From Dictyostelium discoideum (taxonomy: Eukaryota): a DNA stretch of 64,000 nt. A program made the translations under genes and the position numbers. This document shows, one piece after another, positions 28,587-63,849 of the stretch; position 1 is the stretch's first letter; every line of letters starts with the position of its first letter. The notes beneath the pieces were generated by a model, which saw only the letters and a program-made list of their open reading frames with translations, ran no database searches and had not been told where the DNA came from. The stretch is taken from positions 4,576,001 to 4,640,000 of the forward strand of contig CM000154.2 in the NCBI GenBank assembly GCA_000004695.1, read 5' to 3'.

Positions 28587-28999
28587 TATTTAATAGCTTT
28601 AAAAATATTTTATTCAATTGTTAGTTATTAAAATATTTTTTCTTTTTTTTTTTAAATTATTTATAAAAAAAAAAAAAAAAAAAAGAGATCAGGTTTCTCT
28701 GGTGTGAAAATCTCCAAAAAAAAAATAAAAAATGAAAATAAGAAAATTAAATAACTGGCATTAAAATAAAGCAATTTTCATTTCCCAAATGAGTTACTTT
28801 ATTAATTTTTGATAATTTTTAATTTTATTGTGAGAAGTATTATTAATATTGATATTAATGGACCAAATTTTTATTTTATACTTTTATTTTTGAATTTATT
28901 TAATTACTATTCATTACTATTAATTAAAAATTCGAGTGATTTACAATATCTTCTAATTATGGTTTATTTTTTTATTTTATTTTTTTTATTTTTTTTTTT

Positions 29000-29789
29000 C
29001 TAACAACAATATCCAGGTTTTACTTCTTGAAGTGAATCAATTGCAGGTGTGGTTATTGGTGGTTTTTGATTTTTATTATAATGTTCCAAAGCTAATTTAA
29101 GAGCAGCATTATATGATTCTGTAATATTTTGAGAAAACTTTGCAGATGTTTCAAAATAATGAACTCTATCAATAATTCCTTGATCTTCAATATTTTTACA
29201 CCATTGTTCAATTCTTTCTTTTGATATTGATTTATCAGTTCTTGGAATATCTTTTTTTGTACCTATTAAAACAAATGGAACTTTTCCAATACAGAACTTT
29301 CTAGCTTCGTCCATCCATTTATCAAGATTTTTAAATGATTTTTCATTGTGAATATCAAAACAAAGTGTATAACAATTTGACCAACGATAATAAATTGGGC
29401 TTAGGCCATTAAAACGTTCTTGACTACAGGTATCCCAAACCTTGTCATTATCATAATTATTATTATTATTATTATTTATTCCATTTTTTTTTTTTTTTTA
29501 ACATGTTGTTATTTATTCGTTTTTATGAGTTACAAACTTACATTTAAAATGACAGGTTCATTTTCAATGGTTAGGGTCTTTGAATAAAAAGATGGTGAAA
29601 CTGTGCACTCATTAATTTCATATTTTCCAGTAACAAAATTATTAAATACAGATGTTTTGCCTACATAACTGTCTCCAAGAGTAATAATCTTAAAAAATTT
29701 AAAAATAAATAGTTTAATTTTATATATAAAAAAATTAGAAATTATAAAAACTAATTAAATTATAATACCTTTAAACTTTTTTTACTCAT
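29000..29789 (-). CDS. Rab-like GTPase paralog B (G-type), 3 exons: complement(join(29000..29440,29542..29688,29769..29789)).
   Basis: MSKKSLK | [18 protein letters not shown]...EPVILN | [59 protein letters not shown] and GTAAGT donors. Switch II reads DTCSQE. C-terminal CC prenylation motif. Confidence 0.65.
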
Positions 29790-30074
29790 TTTACCTTTCA
29801 ATAACTTTTAAAAAAAAAAATAAAAAAAAAAAAAATAAATTAAAAAAAAAAATTAAAAACTCGCAAGAGAACAAAGATCTCTATTTTTTTTTTTTTTTTT
29901 TTTTTTTTGTTTTTATAAATAGAATTTTTACAATAGTGGTGGGAATTAGACAAAACTTAATTTTTTATACATTTTCAGTTTTTTTTATTTTTTTTCAAAG
30001 ATAACTATCCAAAAAAATGAATGTGTATATTCATAAATTTTGAAAATAATTTAATAATTTTGAAATGATTAAAT

Positions 30075-30114
<40 letters not shown>

Positions 30115-30123
<9 letters not shown>

Positions 30124-30770
30124 TGTTCCAACTTTGACTTCTTCCGGCGGACCAATTGGACGAATAATTGAGATATATTTAACTATACTATAATGTTCCA
30201 AAGCTAGTTTTGCAGCAACATTATATAATTCTGTAACATTTTGAGAAAGTTTTGCAGATGTTTCAAAATAATGAACTTTATCTATAATTCCTTGATCTTC
30301 AATATTTTTACACCATTGTTCAATTCTTGCCTTTGATATTGATTTATCAGTTCTAGGAATATCACTTTTTGTACCTACTAAAACAAATGGAATATTTCCA
30401 TAGCAGTACTTTATAATTTCATCCATCCACTTTCCAAGATTAATAAATGATTCTTCATTGTGAATATCAAAACAAAGTGTATAACAATTTGCACCACGAA
30501 AATAAGGTGGACTAAATGCTTGAAAACGTTCTTGACCACAGGTATCCCAAACCTAATACAATATAATTTATAATTAATAAAACAGTTTTATTTTATTTTT
30601 TTGAATGAATTATACACTTACCATTAAAAACACATGTTTATTTTCAACCTTTAATTCCTTTATAAAATAGTCAGGTCCAATTGAGGGTGGCCTATTATAT
30701 CGATATTCTCCATTAACATAATGATAAAAGAGAGATGTTTTACCAACATTACTGTCTCCAAGAGTTATAA

Positions 30771-30810
<40 letters not shown>

Positions 30811-30894
30811 AGAAAAAAAAAAATTTCAATAAAATAAGAAATTAATATATAATATATTAATCAATACCTTTAACATTGTTTTTTCTTCTTTCAT
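30115..30894 (-). CDS. Rab-like GTPase paralog C (G-type), 3 exons: complement(join(30115..30552,30622..30771,30868..30894)).
   Basis: MKEEKTMLK | [25 protein letters not shown] | [53 protein letters not shown]. Phases are consistent with the ORF-track frame. Confidence 0.65.
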
Positions 30895-30956
30895 TTTTAA
30901 ATATTATATTATATATTAATGATTAAGTTTAATTTTTAAAAAAAAAAAAAAAAAAA

Positions 30957-31160
30957 GGGTTTAAATGATATTTTTTATTTTTAATTGTTGAGAGAGCCAA
31001 GATCTCTTTTTTTTATTTACAAAATTTAGAAAAAAATAAAAATCTGAAATATTTGGAATGTTGTTTGGATATTTCTATTATTTTTAAAAATAGAAAACAA
31101 CACCCATGAAAATCATAATTTGAACTTTTATTATTATTATTATTATTATTTATTTTTAAA
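30957..31160. repeat. Conserved roughly 190-bp element; copies at 30957-31160, 33062-33250 and 35649-35850.
   Basis: gggtttaaatgatattttttatttttaattgttgagagagccaagatctc...gaaaacaacacccatgaaaatcataatttgaactttt recurs three times with over 90% identity. Each copy sits immediately 3' of an F-type gene and 5' of a G-type gene or its remnant. Confidence 0.8.
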
Positions 31161-31518
31161 ATTCTACCACAACCCTAATATCCCATTCGATGATGCAGGG
31201 TGGAAATATTTATTGAATTTTTCTGTTTATTTTTACACCATTGTTCGATTCTTTCTTTTGAAATTGATTTTTCAGTTCTTTCAATATCACTTTTTGTACC
31301 TATTAAAACAAATGGAACTTTCTCATCAACTAATGTATTTGCTTCTAATTCTTTTATCCAATAAATAAGATTATTAAATGATTGTTCATTATGAATACCA
31401 AAACAAAGTACACAACAATCTACATCTCTATAATATATTTTACTATCACCGAATGCACTACCATGTGTATTCCATAACTTTTCATTTTTATTGATTTATT
31501 ATTATTACTATCCATTTT

Positions 31519-31555
<37 letters not shown>

Positions 31556-31700
31556 CAAATTGGTACTTACTTGAAATGATACTGTTTCATTATCAATGAT
31601 TATCTCCTTGTAGTGAAAATCTAGTGCAATTGAGTAACCCCATTGAAAAATAGGTCTACCCATATATAATTCTTAATAATCGATAATTTACCCACCATTC
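31120..31700 (-). pseudogene. Rab-like paralog D: truncated, rearranged copy of the F-type gene.
   Basis: Nearly identical to 33260-33920 over exon 2 and the 5' half of exon 3. About 150 bp of the exon-3 3' part is deleted and replaced by unrelated sequence (aaccctaatatcccattcgatgatgcaggg...), and the frame is not maintained. Confidence 0.6.
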
Positions 31701-32061
31701 TATCACCAATTGTTATTATCTTGTAAAAAAAATGCATATGCTTTAATACTTATATCTGATTTTAATAAGAATTTTTTTTTTTTTTTTTTAAAATACCTTT
31801 AAAAGTTTTCTTTTATTATCCATCACTATTATCTGATTAATTTGAAACTTGAAAAAAAAAAAAAAAAAAAAAAAAAAAGTGAGAGAAAGAAAAGTAAAAA
31901 AAGTCAGAGTAAGAAAAGCATGCTTTTGAACTTTTTTTTTTTTATTTTTTTTTTTTTTTTGACCACAGAGAAAAAAAAAAGAAAAAAAAAATTTGGTTGT
32001 TCACCACCAACTTTTTGCTTCTATAATTTATTTTTTTAAAAAATCAATAATAATAATAATG

Positions 32062-32093
<32 letters not shown>

Positions 32094-32717
32094 TCAACAA
32101 CTTGATGATTTGATATTATTGTTATTTGATATTTCCAGTGTTGGATTTAATTTTGATTCATTTAATTTTTGCATTGAATTAAAATAATTTAAAGCAAACT
32201 TTGAAATGATATTGAATGGCTCTTTAATATTTTTTGAATTCTTTGCAGATGTTTCAAAATAATGAACTTTATCTATAATCCTTTGATCTTCAATATTTTT
32301 ACACCATTGTTCAATTCTTTCATTTGATATTGATTTATCAGTTCTAGGAATATCACTTTTTGTACCTATTAAAACAAATGGTGGTGATAATTTCTCACTT
32401 TCCAAACCATTCTCTAAACATTTTGAATGTAATTCCGTTATCCATTTATCAAGATTTTTAAATGATTCTTCATTATGAATATCAAAACAAAGTACACAAC
32501 AATTTGCATTACGATAGAAATGTCTATTTAAACTGGTAAATCTTTCTTGACCTGCGGTATCCCAAAAATGGTATCCAACAAGTTCATCATCGATCATTAT
32601 CTCTTTATAAAATAAATCAAAAGTTGATGGACAAGTATAAATACCAAATTTTCTACCTGCGAATTCATTAAATATTGCTGTCTTTCCAGAATTATAATCA
32701 CCAATCATTATTATCTA

Positions 32718-32767
<50 letters not shown>

Positions 32768-32856
32768 AAATTAAAAAATGTTAACTTTTATAGTATAATA
32801 TAAAAATAAAAATAAAAATCACATACCTTTAATTTCTTATTTGCTTTATATTCCAT
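32094..32856 (-). CDS. Rab-like GTPase paralog E (E/I-type), 2 exons: complement(join(32094..32714,32827..32856)). Canonical motifs.
   Basis: MEYKANKKLK | [90 protein letters not shown]. Ends ..SSSC*. GTATGT donor; acceptor AATAG at 32716..32715. Confidence 0.65.
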
Positions 32857-33259
32857 TTTTAAAAATATGTATGTATGTGTGTGTGAGATAAAAATAAAAT
32901 AAAAATAAAACCAATCAAGATTTTTTTTTTTTTTTTTTTTTGGGTTGTTTTTTTTTTTTTTTTTTTTTTTATTATTAATTTTTTTTATCTAAACATTATT
33001 TTTTGTTCATTCATTTTTAAATATTATATATAATAAAAAAAAATAAAAAAAATAAAAAAAAGGGTTTAATTATTTTTGATTGTTGAGAGAGCCAAGATCT
33101 CTTTTTTTTTATTTACAAAATTTGAAAAAAATAAAAATCTGAAATATTGGAATGTTGTTTGGATATTTCTAATTATTTTTAAAAATAGAAAACAACACCC
33201 ATGAAAATCATAATTTGAACTTTTTTTTATTATTATTATTATTATTTATTTTTAAAATC

Positions 33260-33721
33260 CTACCACCAACAAATTCCTTTTGGTTTTTCAGGTTCAATTG
33301 AAATATTTATTGAATTTTTCTGTTTATTTTTATATTGATTTAATGCTATTTTTACTATAGTTTCATAAGCTTCAATAATGTTTGTTGATAATTTTGCAGA
33401 AGTTTCAAAATAATGAATTTTTTCTTTTACAATACCTTGATCTTCAATTTGTTTACACCATTGTTCGATTCTTTCTTTTGAAATTGATTTTTCAGTTCTT
33501 TCAATATCACTTTTTGTACCTATTAAAACAAATGGAACTTTCTCGTCAACTAATGTATTTGCTTCTAATTCTTTTATCCAATAAATAAGATTATTAAATG
33601 ATTGTTCATTATGAATATTAAAACAGACTACACAACAATCTACATCTCTATAATATATTTTACTATCTTCATATGCACTACCATGTGTATTCCATAACTT
33701 TTTATTATTATTATCCATTTT

Positions 33722-33753
<32 letters not shown>

Positions 33754-34053
33754 CAAACCAAATTGGTACTTACTTGTAATGATACTGTTTCATTATCAAT
33801 GATTATCTCTTTAAAGTGAAAATCAAATGGAATTGAGTTACCCCATTGAAAAAAAGGTCTACCCATATAATTCTTAATAATCGATAATTTGCCAACCATT
33901 CTATCACCAATTGTTATTATCTTTTTTTTTTTTACATCATTGTTATGAAAAAAAAAAAAAAAATTGCATATGTTTTCTTATTAATATCTGATTTTAAAGA
34001 ATTATTTTTTAATTTTAAAAAAATACCTTTAATAGTTTTCTTTTATTATCCAT
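33260..34053 (-). CDS. Rab-like paralog F (F-type), 3 exons: complement(join(33260..33697,33774..33920,34027..34053)). P-loop and switch II are degenerate.
   Basis: MDNKRKLLK | [18 protein letters not shown] (GxxxxGK-L, the T/S is lost)..ETVSLQ | [27 protein letters not shown] (DTAGQE becomes NTHGSA)..[29 protein letters not shown] donor at 33773..33772 and acceptor AAAAAG at 33699..33698, so the track's MDNNNKK start falls inside the intron. Confidence 0.55.
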
Positions 34054-34326
34054 CACTATTTATCTGATTAATTTGAAATTTTTTAAAAAAAAAAAAAAGT
34101 GAGAAAGTCAAAAAATGAGCAGAAAAGTAGAAAAGCTTCAAACTTCTGTTTTTTTTTTCATCACACAACAAAAATAAAAAACCAACAAAAAAAAAAAAAA
34201 AAAAAAATAAAAAAAAAAAAAAATTTATTTACCAATCTTTCTTTGAAAATATTTTCAAAGTTGATAATAAAAAAAAAAAAAAAAAAATCATCATCATTGA
34301 TCAATTTATTTTAATTGGTAAAAAAA

Positions 34327-34410
34327 AGTGATATTCCAAGAACTGATAAATCAATATCAAATGGAAGAATCGAACAATGGTGTAAAAATATTGAAGATCA
34401 AGGAATTATT
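34327..34410 (+). pseudogene. Inverted fragment of a Rab-like gene (plus-strand [29 protein letters not shown]).
   Basis: Reverse complement of the conserved exon-3 segment found in paralogs E, G and I. Only about 85 bp, with no flanking exon. Confidence 0.6.
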
Positions 34411-34449
34411 GATATATATATTTTTTTTTTTTTTTTTTTTTTTTTTATT

Positions 34450-34640
34450 ATAAATATTTTTAAAGAAAGATTGTAATTTAATTTTAAAGTTGACGAGGTT
34501 GTTTTTCATATTCATGGGCTTGTAGGATCATTTCAAATTTACCAAATTCTATTTTACTAATAATGCTTCATGTTCTTGCCAACAATCAAAAATTTCTTTC
34601 CAGCTTCATCACCCAGTGTATTGACATTTTTCTTCTTTTA
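34450..34640 (-). pseudogene. Fragment of the HDDC2 gene (copy of about 37790-38000 with internal deletions) lying inside the Rab array.
   Basis: agttgacgaggttgtttttcatattcatgggcttgtaggatcatttcaaattt... is near-identical to agttgatgaggttgtttttcatattcgtaggcttgtaggatcatttcaaattt... in the intact gene. Two deletions; not translatable. Confidence 0.6.
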
Positions 34641-34751
34641 TTATTATGATTGATATTAATGGAGCAAATTTTTATTTTATTTAATAATTATTTATTACTA
34701 TTAATTAAATATTCAAGTGATTTACCATCATCTTCTAATTAATGGTTTATA

Positions 34752-34782
<31 letters not shown>

Positions 34783-34783
34783 A

Positions 34784-35606
34784 TTAACAACAATGTCCAG
34801 GTTTTACTTCTTCAAGTAAAACAATTGCAGGTGTAGTAATTGGTGGATTTTGATTTTTATTATAATGTTTGAAAGCTAATTTAGCCGCAGCATTATATGA
34901 TTCTGTAATATTTTTAGAAAGTTTTGAAGATGTTTCAAAATAATGAACTTTATCTATAATTCCTTGATCCTCAATATTTTTACACCATTGTTCAATTCTT
35001 GCCTTTGATATTGATTTATCAGTTCTAGGAATATCACTTTTTGTACCTATTAAAATAAATGGAATACTTTCAAAACAGTACGTTTTAGTATCGTCCATCC
35101 ATTTTTCAAGACTGTCAAATGATTTTTCATTATGTATATCAAAACATAGTGTGTAACAATGTGCACCACGATAATAAGCATAACCTAATGAATGAAAACG
35201 TTCTTGACCAAATGTATCCCAAACCTAATATATTATAATTATTTTATTTTTTATTATTATTATTATTTTTTTTTTTTTTTTTTTTTTTTTTTTCAATTTA
35301 CCACTTACCATCATAGACACATGCTGATTTTCAATCATTAGTTCCTTTGAACAAAAATCAATTGAGCATGACCTATGATATATAAATTTCCCATACATAT
35401 AATTATAAAAGAGAGATGTTTTACCAACATTACTGTCTCCAAGAGTTATAACCTAAAAATAAACAAAAATAAAAAAATATAATAAAAAAAAGAAAAAAAA
35501 AAAGAAAATTAATTTTAAAAATAAATAAAAATAAGAAAAAAAAAAAAAAAAGAAATTAATATATACTTATTTACAATACCTTTAACATTATTTTTTGTTC
35601 ATTCAT
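34784..35606 (-). CDS. Rab-like GTPase paralog G (G-type), 3 exons: complement(join(34784..35224,35309..35452,35580..35606)).
   Basis: MNEQKIMLK | [25 protein letters not shown] | [59 protein letters not shown] and GTAAGT donors. Confidence 0.65.
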
Positions 35607-35823
35607 TTTTAAATATTATATATAATAAAAAAAAAAAAAAAAAAAAAAGGGTTTAAATGATATTTTTTTTATTATTTTTAATTGTTGAGAGAGCCAAGAT
35701 CTCTTTTTTATTTACAAAATTTGGAAAAAAAAAAAAAAAAAAAAAAAATTTGAAATGTTGTTTGGATATTTCCAATTATTTTTAAAAATAGAAAACAACA
35801 CCCATGAAAATCATAATTTGAAC

Positions 35824-35855
<32 letters not shown>

Positions 35856-35868
35856 TATTTTTAAAATC

Positions 35869-36491
35869 CTACCACCAACAAATTCCTTTTGGTTTTTCAG
35901 GTTCAATTGAAATATTTATTGAATTTTTCTGTTTATTTTTATATTGATTTAATGCTATTTTTACTATAGTTTCATAAGCTTCAATAATGTTTGTTGATAA
36001 TTTTGCAGAAGTTTCAAAATAATGAATTTTTTCTTTTACAATACCTTGATCTTCAATTTGTTTACACCATTGTTCGATTCTTTCTTTTGAAATTGATTTT
36101 TCAGTTCTTTCAATATCACTTTTTGTACCTATTAAAACAAATGGAACATTTTCATTAAATAATGACATCCAATGATTAAGATTATTAAATGATTGTTCAT
36201 TATGAATATTAAAACAGAGTACACCACAATCTACATCTCTAAAATATATTTTACTATCATCGAATGCACTACCATGTGTATTGAAAAGCTTTTTATTATT
36301 ATTATTATCCATTATAATTTTTTTTTTTTTTTTTTAAACCAAATTGGTGCTTACTTGTAATGATACTGTTTCATTATCAATGATTATATCCTTAAAGTAA
36401 AAATCTAATGGAATTGAGTTACCCCATTGAAAAAAAGGTTCACCCTTAAAATTCTTAATAATCGATAATTTACCAAGAAAAGCAGAAAAAC
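35869..36491 (-). pseudogene. Rab-like paralog H (F-type): P-loop destroyed and exon 1 absent; probable pseudogene.
   Basis: Exon 3 (35869..36288) is intact and F-like ([27 protein letters not shown]..). Exon 2 encodes ..[15 protein letters not shown].. (the G-x4-GK P-loop is gone). No MxxKxxLK exon-1 homolog lies upstream. The upstream sequence (36575-36760) is a copy of the E/I-type 3' end. Confidence 0.5.
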
Positions 36492-36539
36492 CTTCAAAAA
36501 AAAAAAAAAAAAAAATTAAAAAATCAACTGGTTGGTATT

Positions 36540-36575
<36 letters not shown>

Positions 36576-36671
36576 TATTGGTCACCACCAGGTTGTTTCT
36601 TCTGTAATTTATTTTTTTATTATTATTACTACTATTATTATTAGATATTTCCAGTTTTGTAATTAATTGAA

Positions 36672-37402
36672 TCATTTAATTTTTTGTATTGAATTAGAAT
36701 AATTTAAAGCAAGCTTTGTAATGGTATTGAATGGCATTATAATATTTTGAGAAAGTTTTGCAGATGTTTCAAAATAATGAACTTTATCAATAATTCCTTG
36801 ACCTTCAATATTTTTACACCATTGTTCAATTCTTTCATTTGATATTGATATATCAGTTCTTGGAATATCACTTTTTGTACCTATTAAAACAAATGGTGGT
36901 AACAACTCCATATTTTCCAAACCGTTCTCTAAACATTTTGAATGAAATTCGTTCATCCATTTATTAAGATTTTTAAATGAATCTTCAAAGTGAAGATCAA
37001 AACAAAGTACACAACAATTTACATCACGATAGAAAGATTTATTTAAATTGGTGGTAAATTTTTCATGACCGGCAGTATCCCAAATATTGCATCCAACAAG
37101 TTCATTATCAACCATTATCTCTTTATAAAAGTAATCAAAAGTTGATGGATTTGTATAACTACCAAATTTTCTGCCTACAATTTCATTAAATATTGCTGTC
37201 TTTCCAGATCTATAATCACCAAGCATTATTATCAAAATAAAAAAAAAAAAAAAAAAAATGTTAAAACATATTTTAAATTAAAAATATGTTTTACTTTTAT
37301 ATAAAATAAAAATAAAAATAAAAATAAAAATAAAAATAAAAATAAAAATAAAAATAAAAATAAAAATCACGCATACCTTTATTTTCTTATTTGCTTTTTC
37401 CA
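36672..37402 (-). CDS. Rab-like GTPase paralog I (E/I-type): complement(36672..37226), with a possibly orphaned 5' exon at 37376..37402.
   Basis: [32 protein letters not shown] (catalytic Gln is His)..[27 protein letters not shown]. Ends ..IQKIK* with no C-terminal Cys. An exon-1 homolog (MEKANKKIK + GTATGC) is present, but the acceptor that reads TAG|ATAATAATG in E reads TTG|ATAATAATG here. The (AAAAAT)n repeat at 37300-37350 is intronic or upstream. Confidence 0.55.
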
Positions 37403-48076: not shown

Positions 48077-48321
48077 GTTATTTAATCATTATATAGGAGT
48101 AAAATATCTGTTTTAAAAAAAAAAAAAAATAAAAAAATGTAAAAAAATTAAAAAATAAAAAAATAAAATTTTAAAAAAAAATAAAAATATAATGCACCAA
48201 AACATGTTAATTTTAGATATTTTTTTATTTTTATAATAATTTGGTCAATAAAAAAAAAATTTGGATATTTTTTTTTTTTTTTTTGAGATATTTTTTTTCT
48301 TTTTTTATTAATTATTATTTT

Positions 48322-49596
48322 TTATAAAAGTTTAGCAATAATAAACCAATCTAATGATGGTATTAATTTTGAATTATTATCTAAAAGTTTTGAACCAAAA
48401 TGACCTGAATAAATTGTACTATTGTATTCTTGATCAATATCTTTTAATTTTATAGGACATGATACATATCCATTTGGAATTGAATCACCATTAACTCTTG
48501 GCCATGGAAAATCCTCTTCTTCATCAAAAAATAAAAATTTTTTATCATTGTATTTACCATCATTATCGAATACACAAAAAGTAGCTAACCAACCTGTTAA
48601 AACTGATCCACCAGATCGTTGTTTATAATCAACTATTTGATTCCACCAAGTTGTATCAGGATTTCCTTTTGCAGAATCAATGAATTTATCAATCACTGCT
48701 AATAAATATTTATTTAACCATTTTTTAATTACACCATCTTTATTATCGAATTGAATTAATTTTTCAACTCTTTCTTTTAAATTTATCCAATCATTAATTT
48801 CACCTAATAATGTTACTTCTGAAAGTCCACATTTACATCCATATCTATAATCGAAATATTTCTTCATTGTTGACATTAATGCAATTGAAAATACAACTTT
48901 ATCAGATTCTGTTGTAGTTGTAAAATCTGGTATAATTAAATCTTTAATTGATGGATCTTTAATATTTGATTGAATTTGATTTGACATTTCAATTGTTAAT
49001 TTTTCAAAAGGTGCTTCTAATATTCTATATTCAGTCTCAACTATTAATTCCTTTTTACCAGTAAAATCTACAAATTTTTCACGTAATTCTTCAGAGTTTT
49101 TATTTATGTAGAACGATAATTGAGTTAATATTGCCATCCAGATATTATCTGGACGTAATACCAAATGATTGTGATTATTATAACTTTCCCAAGCAGAGTA
49201 TACAAAACTATTTAAATTAAATGATTCTAATTTTGAACCATCATCATCGCCATTGATAATACTTGTTTGTAATACTTTGTATTTTTTAGATTCTTCACCA
49301 ATTTCATTTTTAATTATTGCACTTGCTTCCATTCTTTCTTGATAATAAATTGAATGATTATTTTTAATTGAATTTAAAGGTTCATTTGTTTTTAATAATT
49401 CATTTTTTAAAAAATCATCAACATTAAATTCATATTTTAATTCCCATTTATTTTGTTCAATATCACAAACTCTAAATGAAATTGATTTATTATTTTCATC
49501 TCTTTTAATTTTGAAATTGTATTTAATTACTTTTGAATCTTTACCATCCTCATCAGCATGATGACAATTTATATTTATTTTTCTATTATTTTTCAT
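48322..49596 (-). CDS. Hypothetical 424-aa protein (conserved eukaryotic DUF-like).
   Basis: Single ORF with ATG at 49596 and an AT-rich promoter upstream. Its C-terminal half (..GNPDTTWWNQIVDYKQRSGGSVLTGWLATFCVFDNDGKYND..) is duplicated at 50019-50880. Confidence 0.55.
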   Translation of the reverse strand: MKNNRKININCHHADEDGKDSKVIKYNFKIKRDENNKSISFRVCDIEQNKWELKYEFNVDDFLKNELLKTNEPLNSIKNNHSIYYQERMEASAIIKNEIGEESKKYKVLQTSIINGDDDGSKLESFNLNSFVYSAWESYNNHNHLVLRPDNIWMAILTQLSFYINKNSEELREKFVDFTGKKELIVETEYRILEAPFEKLTIEMSNQIQSNIKDPSIKDLIIPDFTTTTESDKVVFSIALMSTMKKYFDYRYGCKCGLSEVTLLGEINDWINLKERVEKLIQFDNKDGVIKKWLNKYLLAVIDKFIDSAKGNPDTTWWNQIVDYKQRSGGSVLTGWLATFCVFDNDGKYNDKKFLFFDEEEDFPWPRVNGDSIPNGYVSCPIKLKDIDQEYNSTIYSGHFGSKLLDNNSKLIPSLDWFIIAKLL

Positions 49597-50018
49597 TTGT
49601 GTTTGAATTTCCCAACAACAATAAAAAAAAAAAAAAAAATTTTTTTTTTTTAATAACTCAAAGAACCATTTTACCAGAAAGTGAGAAAAAAAAAAGAAAA
49701 AAAAAAAAAAAAAAAAATTTAAAATAATAAAATAAAAATAGATTTGGTTATTAAATTGTTAAAGAGGTCATATTTTCTATTGTTGATATATTATTCATGA
49801 AGATTGTAAAAAATCTTTTTTCTTTTTTTTAATATTCCATGTTTTTCTATTTAAATACTCGAAAAAAAAAAAAAAATAACCAAATGAATATGGTTCTCAT
49901 AGAGATACTAGTTCTCATTTGTTGGATATATTGTTATTATTGTTATTTTTATTTATAAAACTTTTTATTTTTTTTTTTATTTTCCCTTTTTTAAATTCTC
50001 AAGTTTAGCAACAATAAA

Positions 50019-50880
50019 CTAATCTAATGATTGTATTAATTTTGAATTATTATCTAATAGTTTTGAACCGAAATGACCTGAATAAATTGTACTATCGTAT
50101 TCATGATTTAAATCTTTTAGTAAAACTGGACATGATACGAATCCATTTGCAATTGTATCAATATTAACTCTTGGCCTTGGAAAATCCTCTTTTTGATTAC
50201 CCTTATATGACATTATATATCTATCATCATTATATTTACCATCATTATCGAATACACAAAAAGTAGCTAGCCAACCTGTTAAAACTGATCCACCAGATTG
50301 TGATTTATAATCAACGATTTGATTCCACCAAGTTGTATCAGGATTTCCATTTGCAGAATCAATGAATTTATCAATCACTGGTAATAAATAAACTAACCAT
50401 TTTTTAATTTCACCATTTTTATTATCGAACTGAATTAATTTTTCAACTCTTTCTTTTAAATTTATCTAATCATTAATTTCACTTAAAAATGTTACTTCTG
50501 AAAGTCCACATAATGATTGGAAAACAAACTTAAAATAATTTTTCATTGTTGACATTAATGCAATTGAAAATACAACTTTATCAGATTCTGTTGTAGTTGT
50601 AAAATCTGGTATAATTAAATCTTTAATTGATGGATCTTTAATATTTGATTGAATTTGATTTGACATTTCAATTGTTAATTTATCAAAAGGTGCTTTTAAT
50701 ATTGGATATCCTGTCTTAACTACTAATTTCTTTTAACCAGTAAAATCTACAAATTTTTCACGTAATTCTTCAGAGTTTTTATTTAAATAGATGAAAATTG
50801 AGTTAATATTGCCATCCAGATATTATCTGGACGTAATACTAAATGATTGTGATTATTATAACTTTCCCAATAGTTCGTTT
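50019..50880 (-). pseudogene. Decayed tandem duplicate of the 3' two-thirds of gene 48322..49596.
   Basis: About 85% identical, including the 3' flank (compare 49930-50020 with 48240-48330), but with internal stops and frameshifts. The track splits it into ORFs 50019..50378 and 50466..50666. It has no 5' part. Confidence 0.65.
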
Positions 50881-52086: not shown

Positions 52087-52137
<51 letters not shown>

Positions 52138-52183
52138 TATCTGAATTTTTAAATGATATTATTTTATTTATTGGTTTTAAATA

Positions 52184-54889
52184 TTATTCTTTTTCAATAC
52201 AAACTTTAACTTTGTATTGTATTTGATGAAGGATAGAATCAGAATAATCGATGGATCCAGATTTAACATTATAACAAATGAGGGTATTATTATATGCATA
52301 GTTAAATTCTACTTCTTTTGGATAACAGGCAAGTTTACTTGATGCAGAGTTGAATTCTGTGATAATAGTTTGATTGGTAATTACAATTGGCTCTACTTCG
52401 GATGGTGGAACTTCAAAGCATGCAGAATAATCTGAAGCTTTTACCAATGAATTCTTTGAGCATGATGAGTATTTATTGTAATTATAGCATTCTACATTAT
52501 TAATGAATGAATGTTCAGGTTCACCGCCATCACTAACACATTCAACAATGTTTGATTGGGTTTCACTATTTGAACAGAAAATAGTAGAATTATGATTGTA
52601 TGTATATTCGTTAAATCCATCTTTACAATAGATTGGACTATTTTGACCATAGATTATCATTGATTTTTCATTGGCATCATATTCACATTTTAATGAACTT
52701 GAAACTTTTGAAACCGTTGGAATAGAGAATTTATAAGATGCAGATTTTGAACGAACACCACAATTAATTTCAGTTCCAAAGTTGGTTGTATTACATTTAA
52801 TACCATTATTATTAGCATTAATTTGACAAGTGAATGATTTGTTGAAATTGAAACTTAAATTATTATTATCAATACATGTTACAGTTTCATTGAATTGATT
52901 ATCAATTGTAAAGATACGATCATTATGATTAATTGAGAAAAATACTGCAGAGTAAGGTGTTGAAGCAATTGATAAAAGATTGGATGTTGGTACTGGTGCT
53001 GTTGATGATGATAATAGGTTACCACCCATTGATGATTTTGTTACCACCATTGCTAAAGCTATAGTTGATACACGTTTAATACCATTCTTTGCAACCTGAG
53101 TTACAACTCTTCTTGTTACTGCTGCGAATCCAAATTGTAATGATTTCTCTAATGCTCCTGAAAATGATGCTGTAGATGCTAATATTGAACCAGATTTAGC
53201 TGCTGTTGCAGATGTTGCCAATGCTATTTGTGTAAGTGGTAAAGCAGTTGATGCTAATAATGCTGCTGCAACCAAAGCTGCTAATCCAATAACAATAAAA
53301 ATTACAATATTTGTTGGAGATTCTGGATCAACATAAGAAAAGTAATTATTAAGACTATTTAATTGACTTTGAACATTAACACGAATTGGTAAACCTTTTC
53401 CTTTACCTGGTGGTACAGTACATTTTACATTTTTAGAATCAACCCACTCCCAGTTGACACAAAGTACGCCATTAATAGAAACTGTACCATTTGACGAATT
53501 AACAGAGTTTTTCAATGATTTTGGAACAAAGTCATAACCTTTGATTGTAATAGTTTTACCACCTGAAGATGGTGCTGCATATTGTTTATTATCCAATGAT
53601 GGTGGATTATAAGAGAATGATCTTGTTTCATTTGATTTTTGTCCACCAACTAAAAGTACAACTGAATGGTTTTTACCAATACCTGCAACTGGATTAAATG
53701 AGAAACTTGTTGAATTAATCCATTTAATATCTTTATATTGAGTTTTACCATTGATTGTTATTGAATTTACTGAAACATTTTTGTTTTCTTCTTTATTATA
53801 AAAATCTTTTAATTCAGCGGGAACGAAATTGAAACCAACATATTTAATATCAGTGGCACCATCAGTTGATACTGTAATTTTATTTGTAATATTTGGTTTA
53901 TTATAAGAGAATAAAAGTTGATTTTCAGATTTTTGTTCACCAATAGTAATATTAACTTTTAGATTGGCACCGATACCAGGTGGAATAATACAACTAACAT
54001 TGGTTGAATTTATCCATTGAACTGATCCACATTCAAATGTACCTATATAAATTCTTGAAGTATTTCTCCAAGATGCAATTGTTTTATTTGAATCATAAAA
54101 TGGTGAAATAAATTCGAATGGATTGAAATTAAAACCTGTAATATTTAAATATTGTGGTTTTTGTGGAGGAGTTACACAATTTAATCTACTACAATTACCA
54201 CCATGAGTATCTGAACTATTGGCAGTTAAGAATTTGGAAAGCCATGGTAGAGAATATGAATATTTATAAGTATATCTGGCAGTGTTTGCAAGTGTAACTT
54301 GGATTGTTCTATTAGCACCAACATTTATTGGGAAACTACATAGGTAAAGATCGAAATCGGTTGAATAATATGCATATTGGGATTTCAAGTATGGACAAAT
54401 ATTTGAATAATCGATTTTACTATTTGCAATTACATCTGAAGTACAACGTTGAATTTCACAAAATGAGTCAGTGCCATCCACTGTTGCTTCTGGAATTTCT
54501 TCAACAATCGAACCTAAACCTCTACCAACTATCCAATATTGATTTATATTTGATGTATTCAAATGTTTATCATCGTAATATAATTTATCAATAATCATTG
54601 ATGGATATGTAAATTTAATCGATGCAGTTGAGGCATTCATACCTGTGTTTATTGCAAAAACATTTACAGTATAAAAACCTGGTGGTACAATAACCTCCAT
54701 AATCTTATCAGAGGTGAATTTTGTAATTTCTGCAATTTCTGAACCAAAATAGATATTTGTGCTTCCATTGAAAAAGTTTTGACCATTAATAGTTACTACA
54801 TCTCCAATTTTACCTGTTGTTTTTGATAAACTACTAATAATTACATTTTCAAATGTAAAGTAATTTACAACACCACTTTTAATATTCAT
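52184..54889 (-). CDS. IPT/TIG-repeat protein with a hydrophobic Ala/Ser-rich segment and a Cys-rich C-terminal region. Probably the 3' exon of the giant gene that begins at 60495.
   Basis: Multiple TIG-like units (GDVVTINGQNFF..; LNITGFNFNPF..; ITINGKTQYKD..; ITIKGYDFVP..). A hydrophobic stretch (IVIFIVIGLAALVAAALLAS...) is followed by a 330-aa Cys/N-glycosylation-rich tail. There is no signal peptide at its ATG. The upstream ORF ends ..GSK + GTATGT at 55018, only 125 bp away, and an acceptor AAAAG|TGG at about 54878 keeps the frame. Confidence 0.55.
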   Translation of the reverse strand: MNIKSGVVNYFTFENVIISSLSKTTGKIGDVVTINGQNFFNGSTNIYFGSEIAEITKFTSDKIMEVIVPPGFYTVNVFAINTGMNASTASIKFTYPSMIIDKLYYDDKHLNTSNINQYWIVGRGLGSIVEEIPEATVDGTDSFCEIQRCTSDVIANSKIDYSNICPYLKSQYAYYSTDFDLYLCSFPINVGANRTIQVTLANTARYTYKYSYSLPWLSKFLTANSSDTHGGNCSRLNCVTPPQKPQYLNITGFNFNPFEFISPFYDSNKTIASWRNTSRIYIGTFECGSVQWINSTNVSCIIPPGIGANLKVNITIGEQKSENQLLFSYNKPNITNKITVSTDGATDIKYVGFNFVPAELKDFYNKEENKNVSVNSITINGKTQYKDIKWINSTSFSFNPVAGIGKNHSVVLLVGGQKSNETRSFSYNPPSLDNKQYAAPSSGGKTITIKGYDFVPKSLKNSVNSSNGTVSINGVLCVNWEWVDSKNVKCTVPPGKGKGLPIRVNVQSQLNSLNNYFSYVDPESPTNIVIFIVIGLAALVAAALLASTALPLTQIALATSATAAKSGSILASTASFSGALEKSLQFGFAAVTRRVVTQVAKNGIKRVSTIALAMVVTKSSMGGNLLSSSTAPVPTSNLLSIASTPYSAVFFSINHNDRIFTIDNQFNETVTCIDNNNLSFNFNKSFTCQINANNNGIKCNTTNFGTEINCGVRSKSASYKFSIPTVSKVSSSLKCEYDANEKSMIIYGQNSPIYCKDGFNEYTYNHNSTIFCSNSETQSNIVECVSDGGEPEHSFINNVECYNYNKYSSCSKNSLVKASDYSACFEVPPSEVEPIVITNQTIITEFNSASSKLACYPKEVEFNYAYNNTLICYNVKSGSIDYSDSILHQIQYKVKVCIEKE

Positions 54890-55015
54890 TTTTATATTTT
54901 TAAAACAATAAAATGAAATATAACTAATTAATTTAATTAAAAAAAAAAAAAAAAAAAAAATTGTAAATATATTATGTTTTTAAAATTAAAAATTATTATT
55001 AAAAAAAAAATTAAT

Positions 55016-57015
55016 TTATACATACTTTGAACCAGCACCAATTGCCTTAATATAAAATTGTGTATTTGTTAAAAATGTAATTGTATCTGTAACATTAGTT
55101 TCACCAATTTTTACAACCAAACCATATCTACTATCAGTTGCTTGTAAAAAGTTTTCACCAGTAACAGTAATTAATGAATTATATTTTGGATTTGTAGCAG
55201 AGTAAGTAATTTTAGTTACAGTTGGAATTGGGAATTTGAAGTAATATAATATATTTCTTGGATATAATGATTCGTAAATATTTTTGGAATATTCATTATA
55301 AATTTTAATTCTTTTATTTTGAAGACCGATAGTTAATGAACTTAATCTAAAGATAATTCTACATGTTCCGTTAGTGTATCTTTGGATGGAATTAAAACTA
55401 GCTTGACTTGAACCAACATATGCAAAAAGTGTATTGGTACTTGTTGGACAAAATCTGGCATTGACAGTAATCTCTTGTGATTTTACAGTAACGTCATCAA
55501 CAATTGGACCAATTGGACATGAATTAATGATTTTTCCACTTTGGAAATCTTGAATTGAAGATTCAATGAATGAACAAATCTTAAAATTTACAAAAACCAT
55601 TGATAAACCAAAAGATGAATTGGTTTTTGAAGGAGCGAAATAAGTATCAAAATTTGTATAACTTTTTCTGGTTGAATTGTTTTTCAATGCTAATTTAAAT
55701 AAATCAGAAGTAATTTGTTTTATATCGTCAAATGAATTCTTTGGTTTAACTTCTGTGGATGTATATGTACAAACATAATGACGAGTTGTTGAATCTACAT
55801 ATTTTGAAAGAATATTAATTTTTGAAACAACATTTGTAAGTTTTAAATATTCATAGAATTGACCTGATCTCCAATTTCCAATAATTGGATTATCAATCCA
55901 TCTTTTTTCAAAGAATTTAATAACTTTGGCAAATGTGGTAGTATTATATTTTATTAATTCATTTGGACAAACACCAATTGTTAAAAGAGTACTATTTAAA
56001 TCATTTTTAGTATTTAATAAATTTAAATCCTATTTTTTTTTATAAAAAAAAAAAAAAATAAAAAATAAATATTAATATGATATATATTTTTAATATTAAA
56101 ATAAAAATATTTTTTAAAAAAAAAAAAAAAACTTACATTTTGGGTAATACCAGTACAATTATAACGGCAATAATCTCTTGATGGACAATTTCTAATTGTT
56201 TCTGTAGTGAATGCATTTGCAAGTGTGGTTTCTAAAAAGGCACAAGTTTTGTTATTGATAGAGATAATAGTAAGACCTAATGCTGATGGACTTGATGGGT
56301 GTGGTGTGTGTGTAACCGTTAAACCTCTATCTACTTGTCTGTGAATTGATTGATTAGCAAACTTTCTAAGATCTATTGATTGATCTAAAATACTTGAAAA
56401 TGTTTTAAATTTGCCAGTGGAAGATATGTAGCTACAATAATTATTATTTGTTTTAGTGACAAATTTTGAAAGGATTTGTTTGGTAATTGTGGAATTGGTG
56501 AATAGGAGATTATAGAATTGGCCAGTAGTCCAATCATTTGGTATTTTGTTGTCATACCAATATTGTGAAAATAATGTTGATAATTGAATATCTGTGTAGT
56601 TTGATTGGAATTCACCACCACAAACGCCTCCTGAAAGAAGAACATGAGTGATTGAATTAAATGTATAAGCTCTTTGAGGTGTTCTACAGGTGTACTCACA
56701 TGGATTTTTAAGGGCTGGATTATTGGGGTAAATTTGTGAGAATGTTTTAGTGCATGCATGTTCTGAATACACCCCAATATAAATTTCTGCACTTGATTTT
56801 GATATACTATAAATACGGAATGGATATAAAGTATTACATCTTAATTGTAATGTAAACTTTCTATTTGTTGTGCCAGTATAAGTGTGTATTATATCTATTC
56901 CAGATGATTGATATCTAAATTGTTGAGATTCAACGCTACCATATGGAATGGTTAAATTCATACATGATTGATATGCAACACCTGAGATCATACATTGATG
57001 CGTGTTTCCACCCAT
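55016..57015 (-). CDS. Cys-rich repeat protein segment: complement(join(55016..56029,56137..57015)). Probably the middle exons of the same giant gene.
   Basis: GTAAGT donor at 56136..56135 and acceptor AATAG at 56031..56030, both phase 0. Encodes ..CEYTCRTPQRAYTFNS.., ..DYCRYNCTGITQN|DLNLLNTKNDL..HYVCTYTSTEVKPKN.. and a TIG-like end. The ATG at 57015 is preceded by an in-frame TAG. The link to the upstream exon at 57267 is unresolved; a possible micro-exon lies at about 57175. Confidence 0.5.
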
Positions 57016-57266
57016 ATTAAAATAAATCTAAATAAATAAAAAAAATAAAAAAAAAATAAAAAAAAACGAATGGATTTAGTAAATTTTTAATTTTAGTTTT
57101 AATTTTTTTTTTTTTTTTTTTTTTTTTTATAAGATTTAACTTACTGTATCATATTCATATTTATATATGTAATTACCTGATGAAATACTTTAAAATAAAA
57201 TAATAAAAACGTTAATATTTGTTATTTTTTAAAGGGGAAAAAAAAATATAGAAATTATTTACTTAC

Positions 57267-57774
57267 GTTTTGAGAGGTCTCAAATCAATATAGTTATCGA
57301 GTAATACGTTATGATAGAGAGCTGAAACAGTTTGTTGACAAGCATATTTGGATTGAATATTTAAATTGTATGTACACATTGGATTTTCACTGTATGATGT
57401 AACTTTATAATTTTCAGTTTTGTTGCATGTGAATGAAAGTTTGAGTGTTCTTTTATAACCTGATGAGGGACAATCACTATGAGTAGTAAGACCATATGAT
57501 TTGATTGATAAACTATTAGCTGAATATTGATAATATTGTGTTTTTCCAAGTGGATAAGTATTTCTATTGGAACTTAATATTTGACAAGCAAAATTATCAG
57601 CTCCACAAGAAATAGGTTGAATTCCGAAATTATGATAATAAGAAGAATCATAATTACCAAATGTTAGACCACGGTATTCAATTGAACCATTTCTTTTTAA
57701 AATAAATAAATAAAATTATTAATAAATAAAATTAAGTAATAAATAACTAATAATAAATAAATAACCAATAATAA

Positions 57775-57825
<51 letters not shown>

Positions 57826-59505
57826 TACATTGTTCTATTTTGTAATGGTGAAAAATCAAATACTTGACCATAAAAAGTACTACTGGAAGTAGGATTACTT
57901 CCAAAGTATTCATAATATGCTAACGGACATGCATTTTTGGATGATGCATAGATTGTTTGATTGCAAATAGAGTTATTAACAGTGGTTAAGACGGTGAATT
58001 CAGTATTGGAGCATCTAATATATACCTTTATCTCTGGTTTGGTTGTACAAATGGTAGGGGTAGATGATGAATTAAATGAAATTAAAATATTGTTTGATGT
58101 GTTACTACTTGCAATAAATGGTACTTTGGATACTGTTGGTTTATCAAAGAATGGAATAGTTGTTTTTCCAAGTCCTAAAATAAGACAACCATAATACTTT
58201 CCACTTAATCCTGAGAATTTATTACATACATCAACAGTACCACCACCGAAATTGAAAAGGAATCTATTGAGCTCTAGAGCTGACGAATATGGATTTGATG
58301 ATGATGTTCTTTAATAATTTTTTTTTTATCAGTAAAATAAAACGAATAAAAGAAAATAATAATAATAATAATAAAATACATACAATTTCAATGATCTTAA
58401 ATCATATTGATTGCCACCAAATAAGTATTTGTTTTCAATTGGACAAGCAAATTTAGTGGAGATTTGAACATCGTAGACACATGTTGAACTTTCCACAAAG
58501 CCTTTAATTGCATAGTTTTGAGTTGTATCACAAGTTAAAATAAAGTTACTTATTCTATGATAACCAGTTTGATTGGTACACTTGGTACTATCGATTTTTC
58601 CTGATTGGTATTGAATTGTTAAACCTTTATCAAAGAATTGGACATGACTGAATAGAGTAATACCAGTTGGATACCTTGTGCCATTGACTGAAACACATGA
58701 TTGAATTGGACCCTCACCAGCTGTAGCAGTACATAAAGTTGATGTTTCACAAAGACCAAAATAAAAAATGTTGCTACCATTTGTTGTAGTAAATTGTGAT
58801 GATCCTAAAACACTATTATAATGGAAATATTGAGATTAATTTAATTTAATTTTTTAAAAATTTAAAATAAATAGGTTAGATAATAAAATAATGATAAATT
58901 AAAATAAAAATAAAATAAAAGAATACATACTTTGAAGTTGGTGATAAATCGAAAAATCTATTTTTAGAATCTTGGAAAACACATCTATTTTTAGAATCTT
59001 TAGTATGTGGACTTTCCACTCTAGCATTTTGAATGAAATCATCGTAGTTTGTATCAGAGTATGTATAAACATAATTGTAAAGACTATAAAATGGAATGGT
59101 TTTTGGATTTCCAACTTCTACAGGTAATAATGATTGAATAGAATTAACTTGGTCTTCCAATACACCAATTGAAGCACGAGAGGATATATCGATTGTCTTT
59201 GATTGAGCAGAGGTTGAATTTGATTCGAGTGATGATGTTTTTGGTGCAATGAATTGACAATTACTTTCAAAGAAACACAAATAATTTGAATTTAACGATT
59301 GATAAATCATTGGTTTTTTATCATTATTGGCTGCATTTAATAACTCTATGAAATATGTTTTGAAATCATAAACATTTTCATTATTACTTAACACATCAAT
59401 TAAAAATGATACACTTGATTCTTTAAAACCTTCTAATTCATATAAATCATAAAAGAATGATGTTATTGAAGAGCTGTAATATGAGGCGTTACTTTTAGAT
59501 TTTCT

Positions 59506-59550
<45 letters not shown>

Positions 59551-60495
59551 GAGTTAGATATTTTCCTTTATTTTTTTAAAAAAAAAAAATGCAATAAAAA
59601 CCCAAAAATATCTTACATTAAATTTTTCAAATCATAAAAAACATTTGCATTCTCGTTATAAAGAAAAGACGAATTTGATTGTTGTTTTGTGTGGGAATTC
59701 TAAAAATAAAAAAAAAAAAAATAAAAAAATAAAAAAAAAAAAAAAAAAAATTGATGGTTAGAAAAAAGAAAAAAAAAAAAGAGGTTGGGAAGTTGTTACC
59801 TTTTTGATTGAGATTTGTAAAAAATTTAGAAAACCTTTTAAAAATGAAAGGGTTTGAGTTTGTTCGGGCTTGTTTTCAAAATCATTGTATCCATATAAAT
59901 TTTTTTCGTTTTCATTATATAACGATGGTTTTAAATTTTTAATTATTTGGTGAGAAATTGATTTATAAATATTTTCAAAATTACCATTACCCAGTTTAAT
60001 TGGAAGTGTGTTGATATTATTTAAAATTGCTACTGAATTATTAATTTTAACATTAATATCCCCAATAATTGATTTAAATATTGATAATGATTTAATTTGT
60101 TGTAACTCTTTATATAATATTATATAATTATTATTATTACTGTTTAAATAGTATCGTTGATTTGTTTGATTAAATAATAAATCAAAACTAATAGTTTTAT
60201 TATTTTCAATAATTGAAATATTATTAATTTTATCTTCAAAATATAATTTATTTGGCTTAAATATTGAATCATCAAAACTAATTATACTACTTCCATTAGT
60301 AGTTGTATTAATTTTAATTAAATCATTCTTATTTTCCAATGTTACTTTTGAATTTGGTAAATCATAATTATTAAAAAGTGATAAATAACTTATTAAAAAA
60401 TTATTTGGTTGGATTATTACCTTTTTATTTTCAATCGCACCAAAAATGGATTGAATGAAATAAAATGAAATAAATATTAATAAAATTTTTTTCAT
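57267..60495 (-). CDS. Secreted protein with tandem MRH-like repeats, exons 1-6: complement(join(57267..57692,57829..58308,58384..58812,58931..59503,59617..59699,59800..60495)).
   Basis: Exon 1 has a signal peptide (MKKILLIFISFYFIQSIFGA) and a GTAACA donor, phase 0. Exons 3-6 are each about 430-570 nt, phase 2 at both ends, and each encodes one repeat ending in a C.Y...I.(S/T)K(Y/F)AC(P/Q) motif plus a (Y/F)DL..L motif (FFDLSPTSK, QYDLRSLK, VFDFSPLQNRT, YIDLRPLKT), as in mannose-6-phosphate-receptor-homology repeats. GTATGT, GTAATT and GTAAGT donors. All six exons were checked by codon counting. Confidence 0.55.
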
Positions 60496-60526
60496 TTTTA
60501 TTTGTTTTTGATATCTTACTTTTTAT

Positions 60527-60540
<14 letters not shown>

Positions 60541-60606
<66 letters not shown>

Positions 60607-61081
60607 AATAAAATAAAATAAAATTAAATAAAATAAAATGTTCAAAATTTTTTAGAATAAATCATGATTGGTTTGGTATTTTTAGCATCAAAAGATATTT
60701 CAAAGAAAAAAAAAAATAAAAAAAATGAATTGATATACACCAAGATTTTGCTCGTTTTTTTTTAAAAATTTTGAAACGATATACACTAAAATATTGAACA
60801 TTCAAGAAAAAAAATTATTTTAAATAATTTTAAATAAATAAAAAAAAACAATCAATATTTTAATGTTTACTATGAAGCATTAAAAAAACGCCATCAATAT
60901 TTTAGTGTATATTGTTTAAAATTTTTTAAAAAAAAACGAGCAAAATCTTGTTTTAAATCAATTTTTTTTATTTTTTTTTTTTCTTTGAAATATCTTTTGA
61001 TGCTAAAAATACCAAACCAATCATGATTTATTCTAAAAAATTTTGAACATTTTATTTTATTTAATTTTATTTTATTTTATT

Positions 61082-61134
<53 letters not shown>
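60541..61134. repeat. Roughly 600-bp palindrome: A64, 101-bp perfect arm, imperfect inner arms, about 60-bp centre, 101-bp arm, T51.
   Basis: 60605..60705 is the exact reverse complement of 60983..61083. Inner segments 60706-60810 and 60880-60982 are about 80% reverse-complementary. The flanking homopolymers are A(n) on the left and T(n) on the right. It lies between the divergent starts of the minus-strand gene (ATG 60495) and the DNase II gene (ATG 61184). Confidence 0.85.
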
Positions 61135-61142
<8 letters not shown>

Positions 61143-61183
61143 GCAAGAAACGATTAATTAAATAATTAAATAAATATTAAAGA

Positions 61184-63849
<2,666 letters not shown>

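Follow-up and report, generated by a model that had tools for sequence, protein, structure and literature searches.

The palindrome at the TIG/DNase II locus

The locus described here lies in a 64,000-nt stretch of chromosome 5 in the Dictyostelium discoideum AX4 reference genome (GCA_000004695.1, contig CM000154.2, positions 4,576,001 to 4,640,000 of the forward strand), which is called the window below and to which all unprefixed coordinates refer. A minus-strand gene for a giant protein with IPT/TIG domains (the TIG gene, ATG at 60495) and a plus-strand gene for a DNase II-like protein (DDB_G0290837, ATG at 61184) are arranged head to head, and a long, near-perfect palindrome occupies the interval between them. 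A first reading made from the letters alone (the sequence-only reading) had placed the palindrome between two divergent gene starts, which agrees with both ATG positions. It had also taken the left neighbour for an MRH-repeat gene. Pfam assigns IPT/TIG domains (PF01833) to this gene, and no MRH domain was matched in the five open reading frames (ORFs) of the gene that were scanned.

The perfect ungapped palindrome extends over 160 nt per arm (60557-60716 against 60972-61131), of which 112 nt are non-homopolymer. It includes the exact 101-nt inverted repeat recognized earlier (60605-60705 is the reverse complement of 60983-61083) and is longer than that repeat. When gaps are allowed, the arms reach from 60557 to 60797 and from 60894 to 61131 and are 95% complementary over 241 columns. 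They differ by seven mismatches and two small indels, all of which fall within the inner ~80 nt. The arms enclose a centre, as had been noted, which is asymmetric and measures 96 nt (60798-60893) rather than ~60 bp. The complementary A and T brackets are likewise present with corrected lengths: A71 (60534-60604) in place of A64 and T48 (61084-61131) in place of T51. The start assigned earlier (60541) falls inside the A-run, and the end (61134) lies 3 nt into the next A-run.

The sequence of the palindrome is 87% A+T, and the window as a whole is 22% G+C and contains long A or T runs by the dozen. One 66-nt piece of the arm is found twice in the window, where none is expected from 100 shuffles. 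A single-strand DNA fold returned a very strong structure, with an energy of -224.7 kcal/mol against -83.4 +/- 5.0 in shuffled sequences (z = -28). No other long local inverted repeat is present in the 64-kb window. The recurrence of the arm, the fold score and the uniqueness of the repeat together indicate that the palindrome did not arise by chance.

The A- and T-runs can be assigned to the two genes. Across the Dictyostelium genome, a sense-strand poly-T tract ends ~2 bp upstream of the transcription start (PMC3371697). Under this poly-T rule, the two brackets are the promoters' own tracts and not parts of an inserted element. The A71 tract ends 38 nt before the TIG ATG, and the T48 tract ends 52 nt before the DNase ATG. 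Because the genes are divergent, the two runs by themselves already form a long A/T inverted repeat. The palindrome would accordingly fill the untranscribed interval between the two predicted starts. Such promoters have a TATAAA(A/T)(A/T) box ~29 bp before the start; none was found on either strand in 60496-61183, where the predicted -29 positions fall within homopolymers. The region resembles the poly-T promoters described genome-wide in having a long sense-strand poly-T just upstream of a short A-rich leader. It differs from them in the unusual length of its tracts (71 and 48 nt), in the absence of a TATA box from the intergenic region, and in the mirror duplication of the sequence between the tracts, of which that paper describes no case (PMC3371697). 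The features of the locus are as follows.

52184..60495, minus strand: left gene, giant IPT/TIG-domain protein of ~2450 aa, from ORFs and Pfam PF01833
60496..60533, minus strand: predicted TIG 5´ leader, with a start placed at ~60531-60532 by the poly-T rule; sequence conserved in homologous loci
60534..60604, no strand: A71 tract, sense-strand poly-T of the minus-strand TIG gene; older than the palindrome and later lengthened
60605..60797, minus strand: left arm, derived inverted copy of the DNase-proximal module, with (AAAAT)n, a ~100-nt core and two degenerate 46-bp repeat units
60665..60686, minus strand: inverted copy of the 22-nt core GCTAAAAATACCAAACCAATCA; a second copy found at this locus only
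60792..60797, plus strand: TATTGA microhomology at the inner junction, common to the inner end of the right arm (reverse complement) and the ancestral sequence after the A-run
60798..60893, plus strand: centre, ancestral spacer of 96 nt, homologous to the sequence right after the A-run in relatives
60894..61083, plus strand: right arm, ancestral DNase II-proximal module, with 46-bp repeat units, core and (ATTTT)n
61002..61023, plus strand: 22-nt core in its ancestral orientation, once per homologous region, toward the DNase II gene
61084..61131, no strand: T48 tract, sense-strand poly-T of the DNase II-like gene; older than the palindrome
61132..61183, plus strand: predicted DNase II-like 5´ leader, with a start placed at ~61133-61134 by the poly-T rule; conserved in relatives
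61184..63846, plus strand: DNase II-like gene DDB_G0290837, in blocks of ~61184-62539, 62756-63631 and 63718-63846

The same palindrome in a second assembly

The independent assembly GCA_054883475.1 (locus L001) also carries the palindrome; its 477-nt non-homopolymer part is 100% identical to the reference and lies in the same context. Over 8.9 kb, L001 and the window differ by two substitutions beside homopolymers and by changes of run length; the bracketing runs are A43/T24 in L001 and A71/T48 in the reference. The assembly set to which GCA_054883475.1 belongs was built de novo from Nanopore and Illumina data and includes the lab strain AX2-214 (PMC12745789). Given its near-identity to AX4, L001 is likely to come from AX2-214. 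It samples the same NC4-derived lineage as AX4 and confirms the structure within that lineage.

These data bear on the concern, raised in the sequence-only reading, that the palindrome was produced by the cloning or assembly of the AX4 reference. Both palindromes and long homopolymers are well-known sources of assembly error, and the two assemblies disagree on the homopolymer lengths and on one C/G at each outer arm end. A de novo long-read assembly nevertheless carries the entire non-homopolymer palindrome without a difference, and the nine asymmetric differences between the arms are not expected from an artificial fold-back. The chance that the structure is an artefact is negligible.

The outer arm ends themselves read CC and GG in the reference (60604-60606 and 61082-61084) and C and G in L001 (5447-5448 and 5924-5925). 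Either one of the assemblies contains homopolymer-context errors or the two arms have changed in concert.

Homologous regions lack the left arm

Homologous regions were collected by strict BLAST with a non-homopolymer query; queries with homopolymers, or permissive scoring, gave mostly low-complexity matches. Eleven regions were compared. Two other D. discoideum isolates contributed two TIG/DNase II pairs each (L003 A and B, L005 A and B), and one of them contributed a third pair (L010). The remaining regions are the DDB_G0291033 pair of the lab lineage (L006), those of two cryptic-species isolates (L004 and L008), those of D. citrinum (L007) and D. firmibasis (L009), and the rearranged paralogue DDB_G0267616 (L002).

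The left arm is missing from all eleven regions, which keep the right arm, the centre and the T-run (18-68 nt). An A-run of 15-36 nt is found in the relatives with a TIG side, and none in L002, from which the TIG side is gone. Where the TIG 5´ end is present, the conserved leader and A-run lead directly into C(T/A)AT(T/C)..AACATTC, the sequence with which the centre begins in the window (L007 and L009 were not read at this point). The match between the window and the relatives begins only at ~60755-60797 and extends rightward through the centre and the right arm; the left arm (60605 to ~60791) is therefore an insertion specific to the lab-strain haplotype. The longest non-homopolymer inverted repeat in the relatives measures only 14-50 nt in a scan of all regions but L010.

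The 22-nt core leads to the same polarity. Each relative has exactly one copy with 0-2 mismatches, always directed toward the DNase gene and always at the same distance from its ATG. The exception is D. firmibasis, in which no core match was found within four mismatches. The right arm is homologous to the upstream region of DDB_G0267616 (94%), to the alleles of the other isolates (74-86%) and to the sequences of sister species. As read from these alignments, the change was a gain of the left arm and not a loss. The ancestral order, which all relatives examined still show, is TIG leader, A-run, short spacer, 46-bp repeats (two to four), ~100-nt core, (ATTTT)n, T-run and DNase leader.

Two elements of this module were noted separately. 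The 46-bp tandem repeat upstream of the core has the consensus AAAAAAAACGAGCAATATCTTGGTATTTAGTGTAAAACATTTCAAA and occupies ~60717-60797 and 60846-60975 in the window and 9615-9781 in L006 (3.7 copies), and probably represents a cis-regulatory element in several copies. The conserved core holds a perfect 10-bp dyad, AATCATGATT, at 60660 and 61019.

The opposite polarity would require an ancestral palindrome that lost its left arm in all other loci and lineages. Palindromes are prone to deletion in many organisms, and the deletion in L002 has one end precisely at the left arm's inner edge. However, the same junction of A-run and centre is found in at least nine regions from at least five taxa, including both members of a tandem pair duplication, and independent deletions would not keep restoring one identical junction. 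The arms are 95% identical, compared with 70-86% between loci and species, so that an ancient palindrome would need continuous conversion between its arms. This history is highly improbable.

The empty alleles also bear on the proposal, made in the sequence-only reading, of a foldback or MITE-like element inserted between the genes. The arms are long, inverted and near-identical, AT-rich and free of ORFs, and D. discoideum has non-autonomous DNA elements such as thug-S (PMC4894637). Yet the "empty" alleles lack only half of the supposed element, since they keep one arm, the centre and both runs, and native sequence homologous to the arm lies upstream of all DNase II-like paralogues and orthologues compared. 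Apart from these homologous promoter positions, a search of the 64-kb window and ~190 kb of related loci found no other copy of the arm. No target-site duplication is present at the flanks; these are T8/A71 and T48/A11, complementary low-complexity sequences that are also found in alleles free of the left arm. An inserted element is therefore barely credible.

The candidate was rejected on the empty-site comparison and the absent target-site duplication. In a wider comparison, the palindrome and elements such as thug have long inverted arms, no coding capacity, AT-richness and an intergenic position in common; they are distinguished by the missing target-site duplication, by the lack of a complete empty site and by an arm that is native promoter sequence across species.

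Junctions point to a probable template switch

The origin that we favour, with a probability of roughly three in four, is that ~190 nt of the DNase-proximal promoter were copied in inverted orientation beside the TIG A-run by a replication template switch in the NC4-derived lab lineage. The extra ~190 nt are 95% identical to the reverse-complemented right arm of AX4, compared with 92% for the arm of L003 and 89% for that of L005, and the local right arm is the probable template of the left arm.

Both junctions lie in homology. At the inner junction, the six nucleotides TATTGA occur both in the reverse-complemented right arm (...CACTAAAATATTGAtggcg) and in the ancestral sequence A(n)C-TATTGA-ACATTC. 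Non-palindromic alleles have the hexamer as well, as TATTGA beside the A-run and as TCAATA where the arm ends on the inside. The outer junction is located inside the complementary homopolymers, with the insert abutting the A-run and the source abutting the T-run. The A-run is 23 nt longer than the T-run in the reference and 19 nt longer in the second assembly, which is about the A-run length of relatives; homopolymer lengths are labile, and the excess serves as a consistency check only. A template switch across a quasi-palindrome is proposed because it accounts for the reverse-complement insert, the outer homopolymer homology, the inner microhomology and the run-length excess together.

Mutation of this kind is described by a Ripley-type model of template switching at quasi-palindromes. 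At this locus, the complementary A-run and T-run already formed a quasi-palindrome before the event. A nascent strand ending in the A-run would re-pair with the T-run, copy the right arm inward, and return to the original template at the TATTGA microhomology, which would turn the quasi-palindrome into a palindrome with 240-nt arms. The T-run would at the same time be copied onto the old A-run and leave the A-run longer than the T-run by approximately the ancestral A-run length. The TIG gene now has the core and repeats of the DNase gene at equal spacing beside its own poly-T, which makes a mirror-symmetric bidirectional promoter. Any effect on TIG expression may be a tighter co-regulation of the two genes, or the duplication may be neutral.

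Arm divergence, the donor and the age of the duplication

The distribution of differences between the arms is uneven. The ~100-nt outer arm (CTTTGAAATATC...TTTAATTTTATTTTA) is 100% identical in L002, with one indel in L003 and two substitutions in L005. Because it is near-identical in these one-armed relatives, its perfection reflects purifying selection on a promoter core and not recency or pairing. The inner arm consists of degenerate copies of the 46-bp tandem repeat, which evolve faster. Most of the inner differences are derived on the right (source) arm, and the left arm keeps the states of L002, L003 and L005. The clustering of the differences in the inner arm shows that at least some change followed the copying. 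The duplication is therefore not very recent, and the palindrome has been stable enough for ~8% divergence at the less constrained sites.

The inner arm also bears on the donor. An inverted patch could have been copied from a paralogous promoter, that of DDB_G0267616 or of another TIG/DNase pair, by ectopic conversion or an inter-locus switch, which would be an event of the same type with another donor. Within the inner 80 nt, CGTTTCAAAATT, CTTGGTGTA and AATTCATTTT are common to the left arm, L002 and the alleles of other isolates but are not found in the right arm. The left arm is 95.9% identical to L002, compared with 95.4% to the right arm. These L002-like states are, however, ancestral and also present in L003 and L005, and later changes of the right arm explain them equally. 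At its outer end, the left arm reads CCAAT(AAAAT)3TTAAAT.., which matches the local right arm only; the junction of (ATTTT)n and T-run in L002 is different, and the CCAAT/ATTGG ends with the exact (AAAAT)n pattern are common only to the two local arms. A local switch, moreover, requires no inter-chromosomal contact. A paralogous donor is accordingly considered unlikely.

The L002 paralogue duplicates the whole cassette in rearranged form, with parts deleted and TIG fragments fused to the DNase promoter; positions 4282-5635 and 8765-9922 of L002 correspond to 57922-59484 and 52122-53277 of the window. Informative sites bearing on the relative age of the palindrome and the DDB_G0267616 paralogue give a star-like pattern.

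Several observations weigh against a local template switch as set out above. All nine arm differences fall in the inner ~80 nt, which has a probability below 0.001 if differences are evenly spread, and a simple recent copy would need the added assumption of purifying selection on the outer core. In its inner part, the left arm resembles L002 slightly more than it does the local right arm. The deletion in L002 brings window position 59484 next to 60787-60793, so that its endpoint falls at the left arm's inner edge (AATATGA|TTGAACATTC). This may be a coincidence at a microhomology and homopolymer hotspot, or L002 may derive from a palindrome-bearing ancestor that lost one arm, in which case the palindrome may be older than the L002 duplication. 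The alleles of the other isolates are 6-14% diverged in DNA, and none of the alleles compared is both closely related and free of the left arm. Finally, A-run/T-run pairs were scanned for complementarity followed inward from the runs (runs of at least 14 nt, no more than 1.5 kb apart), and 661 pairs in the window and nine loci yielded no second case of non-low-complexity inward complementarity. The mirroring is thus a single event, and the scan shows no general tendency. The functional part of the proposal is something that we infer from sequence.

Hairpin and regulatory readings

The sequence-only reading had also suggested a hairpin-forming bidirectional regulatory module. As to a bidirectional module, this suggestion comes close, since the palindrome does fill the shared promoter region of the two genes; no result obtained here supports an importance of the hairpin. 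The corresponding explanation would be that selection maintains the palindrome because it forms a cruciform or a hairpin RNA that controls the two genes or is a source of small RNAs. In favour of this are the very strong fold predicted for a single strand, the perfect complementarity of the outer arms, and a content of 87% A+T, which favours extrusion under negative supercoiling. Conversely, the outer part is equally conserved in relatives with one arm and its conservation is therefore independent of pairing, the differences between the arms are not compensatory, and the 96-nt spacer disfavours extrusion. The poly-T rule would place both starts outside the palindrome, so that neither mRNA would include it, and a search for structured RNA in 60300-61400 gave no Rfam match at E up to 1. 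Maintenance by selection for pairing is improbable.

Long perfect palindromes are normally unstable, as the sequence-only reading had remarked. This instability is softened by a non-palindromic spacer in other organisms, and the spacer at this locus is 96 nt long.

Relation to known template-switch events and gene pairs

Template switching between the arms of imperfect inverted repeats expands inverted repeats at yeast promoters (PMC13100816), template switches can create hairpins (PMC8794818), and short-range events have been catalogued in great apes (PMC7954356). The locus shares with these quasi-palindrome switches a new sequence that is the reverse complement of nearby sequence, an imperfect inverted repeat that has become longer and more perfect, two junctions in homology or microhomology, an ancestral state recoverable from relatives, and a location in a promoter. 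It differs from them in that approximately 190 nt were copied at this locus, seeded by homopolymers of 20-70 nt; an entire promoter module is mirrored, and the whole interval between two predicted starts has become palindromic. The short-range switch events that we know of usually involve a few to a few tens of nucleotides. The palindrome thus belongs to a known class of mutation, of which it is an unusually large and fully reconstructible example, and it is no new kind of genetic element.

As a natural case, the locus is unusually clean: the ancestral state, donor, junctions and seeding homology can all be read from comparative sequence. It shows that a eukaryotic promoter can retain a palindrome of several hundred base pairs that has a spacer, and that the homology needed for such events can come from the extreme homopolymers of Dictyostelium promoters. 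One candidate transposon and one candidate assembly error are removed from the AX4 reference. The alleles with and without the mirrored module form a natural pair for testing how orientation and proximity control divergent genes.

A broader proposal is that the mirroring is not neutral but, through the exact copy of the DNase core element that it placed close to the TIG gene, rewired the co-expression of the TIG and DNase genes in one haplotype, and that head-to-head poly-T tracts seed promoter mirroring generally. This is doubtful at present. If it were true, poly-T-seeded mirroring would be a mutational route to bidirectional promoters that is specific to the architecture of the Dictyostelium genome.

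A gene pair for comparison is tgrB1/tgrC1, a co-evolving divergent pair with a shared bidirectional promoter (PMC12745789). Both are head-to-head pairs with IPT/TIG domains, high divergence among isolates and variable copy number; the partner at the present locus is DNase II-like and the TIG protein measures ~2450 aa. The hypervariable TIG/DNase II cassette recalls this allorecognition pair in its variability. We know of no function, and no allorecognition role, for the TIG/DNase II cassette.

The flanking gene pair and its surroundings

The lower bound of the TIG gene (52184) is approximate and corresponds to the end of the last large ORF; a gene of 2454 aa is called at this position in L001. 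The N-terminus of the predicted protein is hydrophobic and looks like a signal peptide. A search with the first ORF of the gene returned no database entry for it. The ORF that starts at 61184 matches the DNase II family in Pfam (PF03265, E = 1e-26), and its best database match is DDB_G0290837. This 456-aa ORF (61184-62554) opens the DNase II-like gene and includes ~28 codons beyond the annotated protein, which are probably an in-frame intron. The gene models conflict, with 896 aa in the second assembly and 759 aa in AX4. A literature search for DDB_G0290837 found no paper, and searches on bidirectional promoters, DNase II or TIG in Dictyostelium found nothing specific to the TIG/DNase II pair.

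The TIG(-)/DNase II(+) pair is a conserved cassette in group-4 Dictyostelium, with one to three copies per genome, and usually adjoins Sod_Cu, ATP-sulfurylase and ComC_SSD genes. Between isolates that are labelled D. discoideum, the identity of the DNase II-like proteins is only 63-89%. Just past the TIG 3´ end, a non-LTR retrotransposon ORF (RVT_1 and Exo_endo_phos) is found in L006 (1-26) and L007 (1-887), that is, in the DDB_G0291033 cassette of the lab lineage and in D. citrinum; other isolates have a second cassette at this position. In the lab lineage, the cassette of the window lies ~330 kb from the DDB_G0291033 cassette on one chromosome, which suggests a rearrangement.

Elsewhere in the window, tandem gene-sized duplicates with 79-92% identity are located at 28888-37325 and 48308-50870. 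Those at 48-51 kb resemble the DUF4419 genes downstream of the DNase gene in L001 (13330-15957). In a self-comparison, the palindrome and these duplicates are followed in prominence by long, near-identical, short-period low-complexity tracts on both strands (6886-7092, 23306-23481, 26730-26856 and 62555-62711), which may be trinucleotide repeats.

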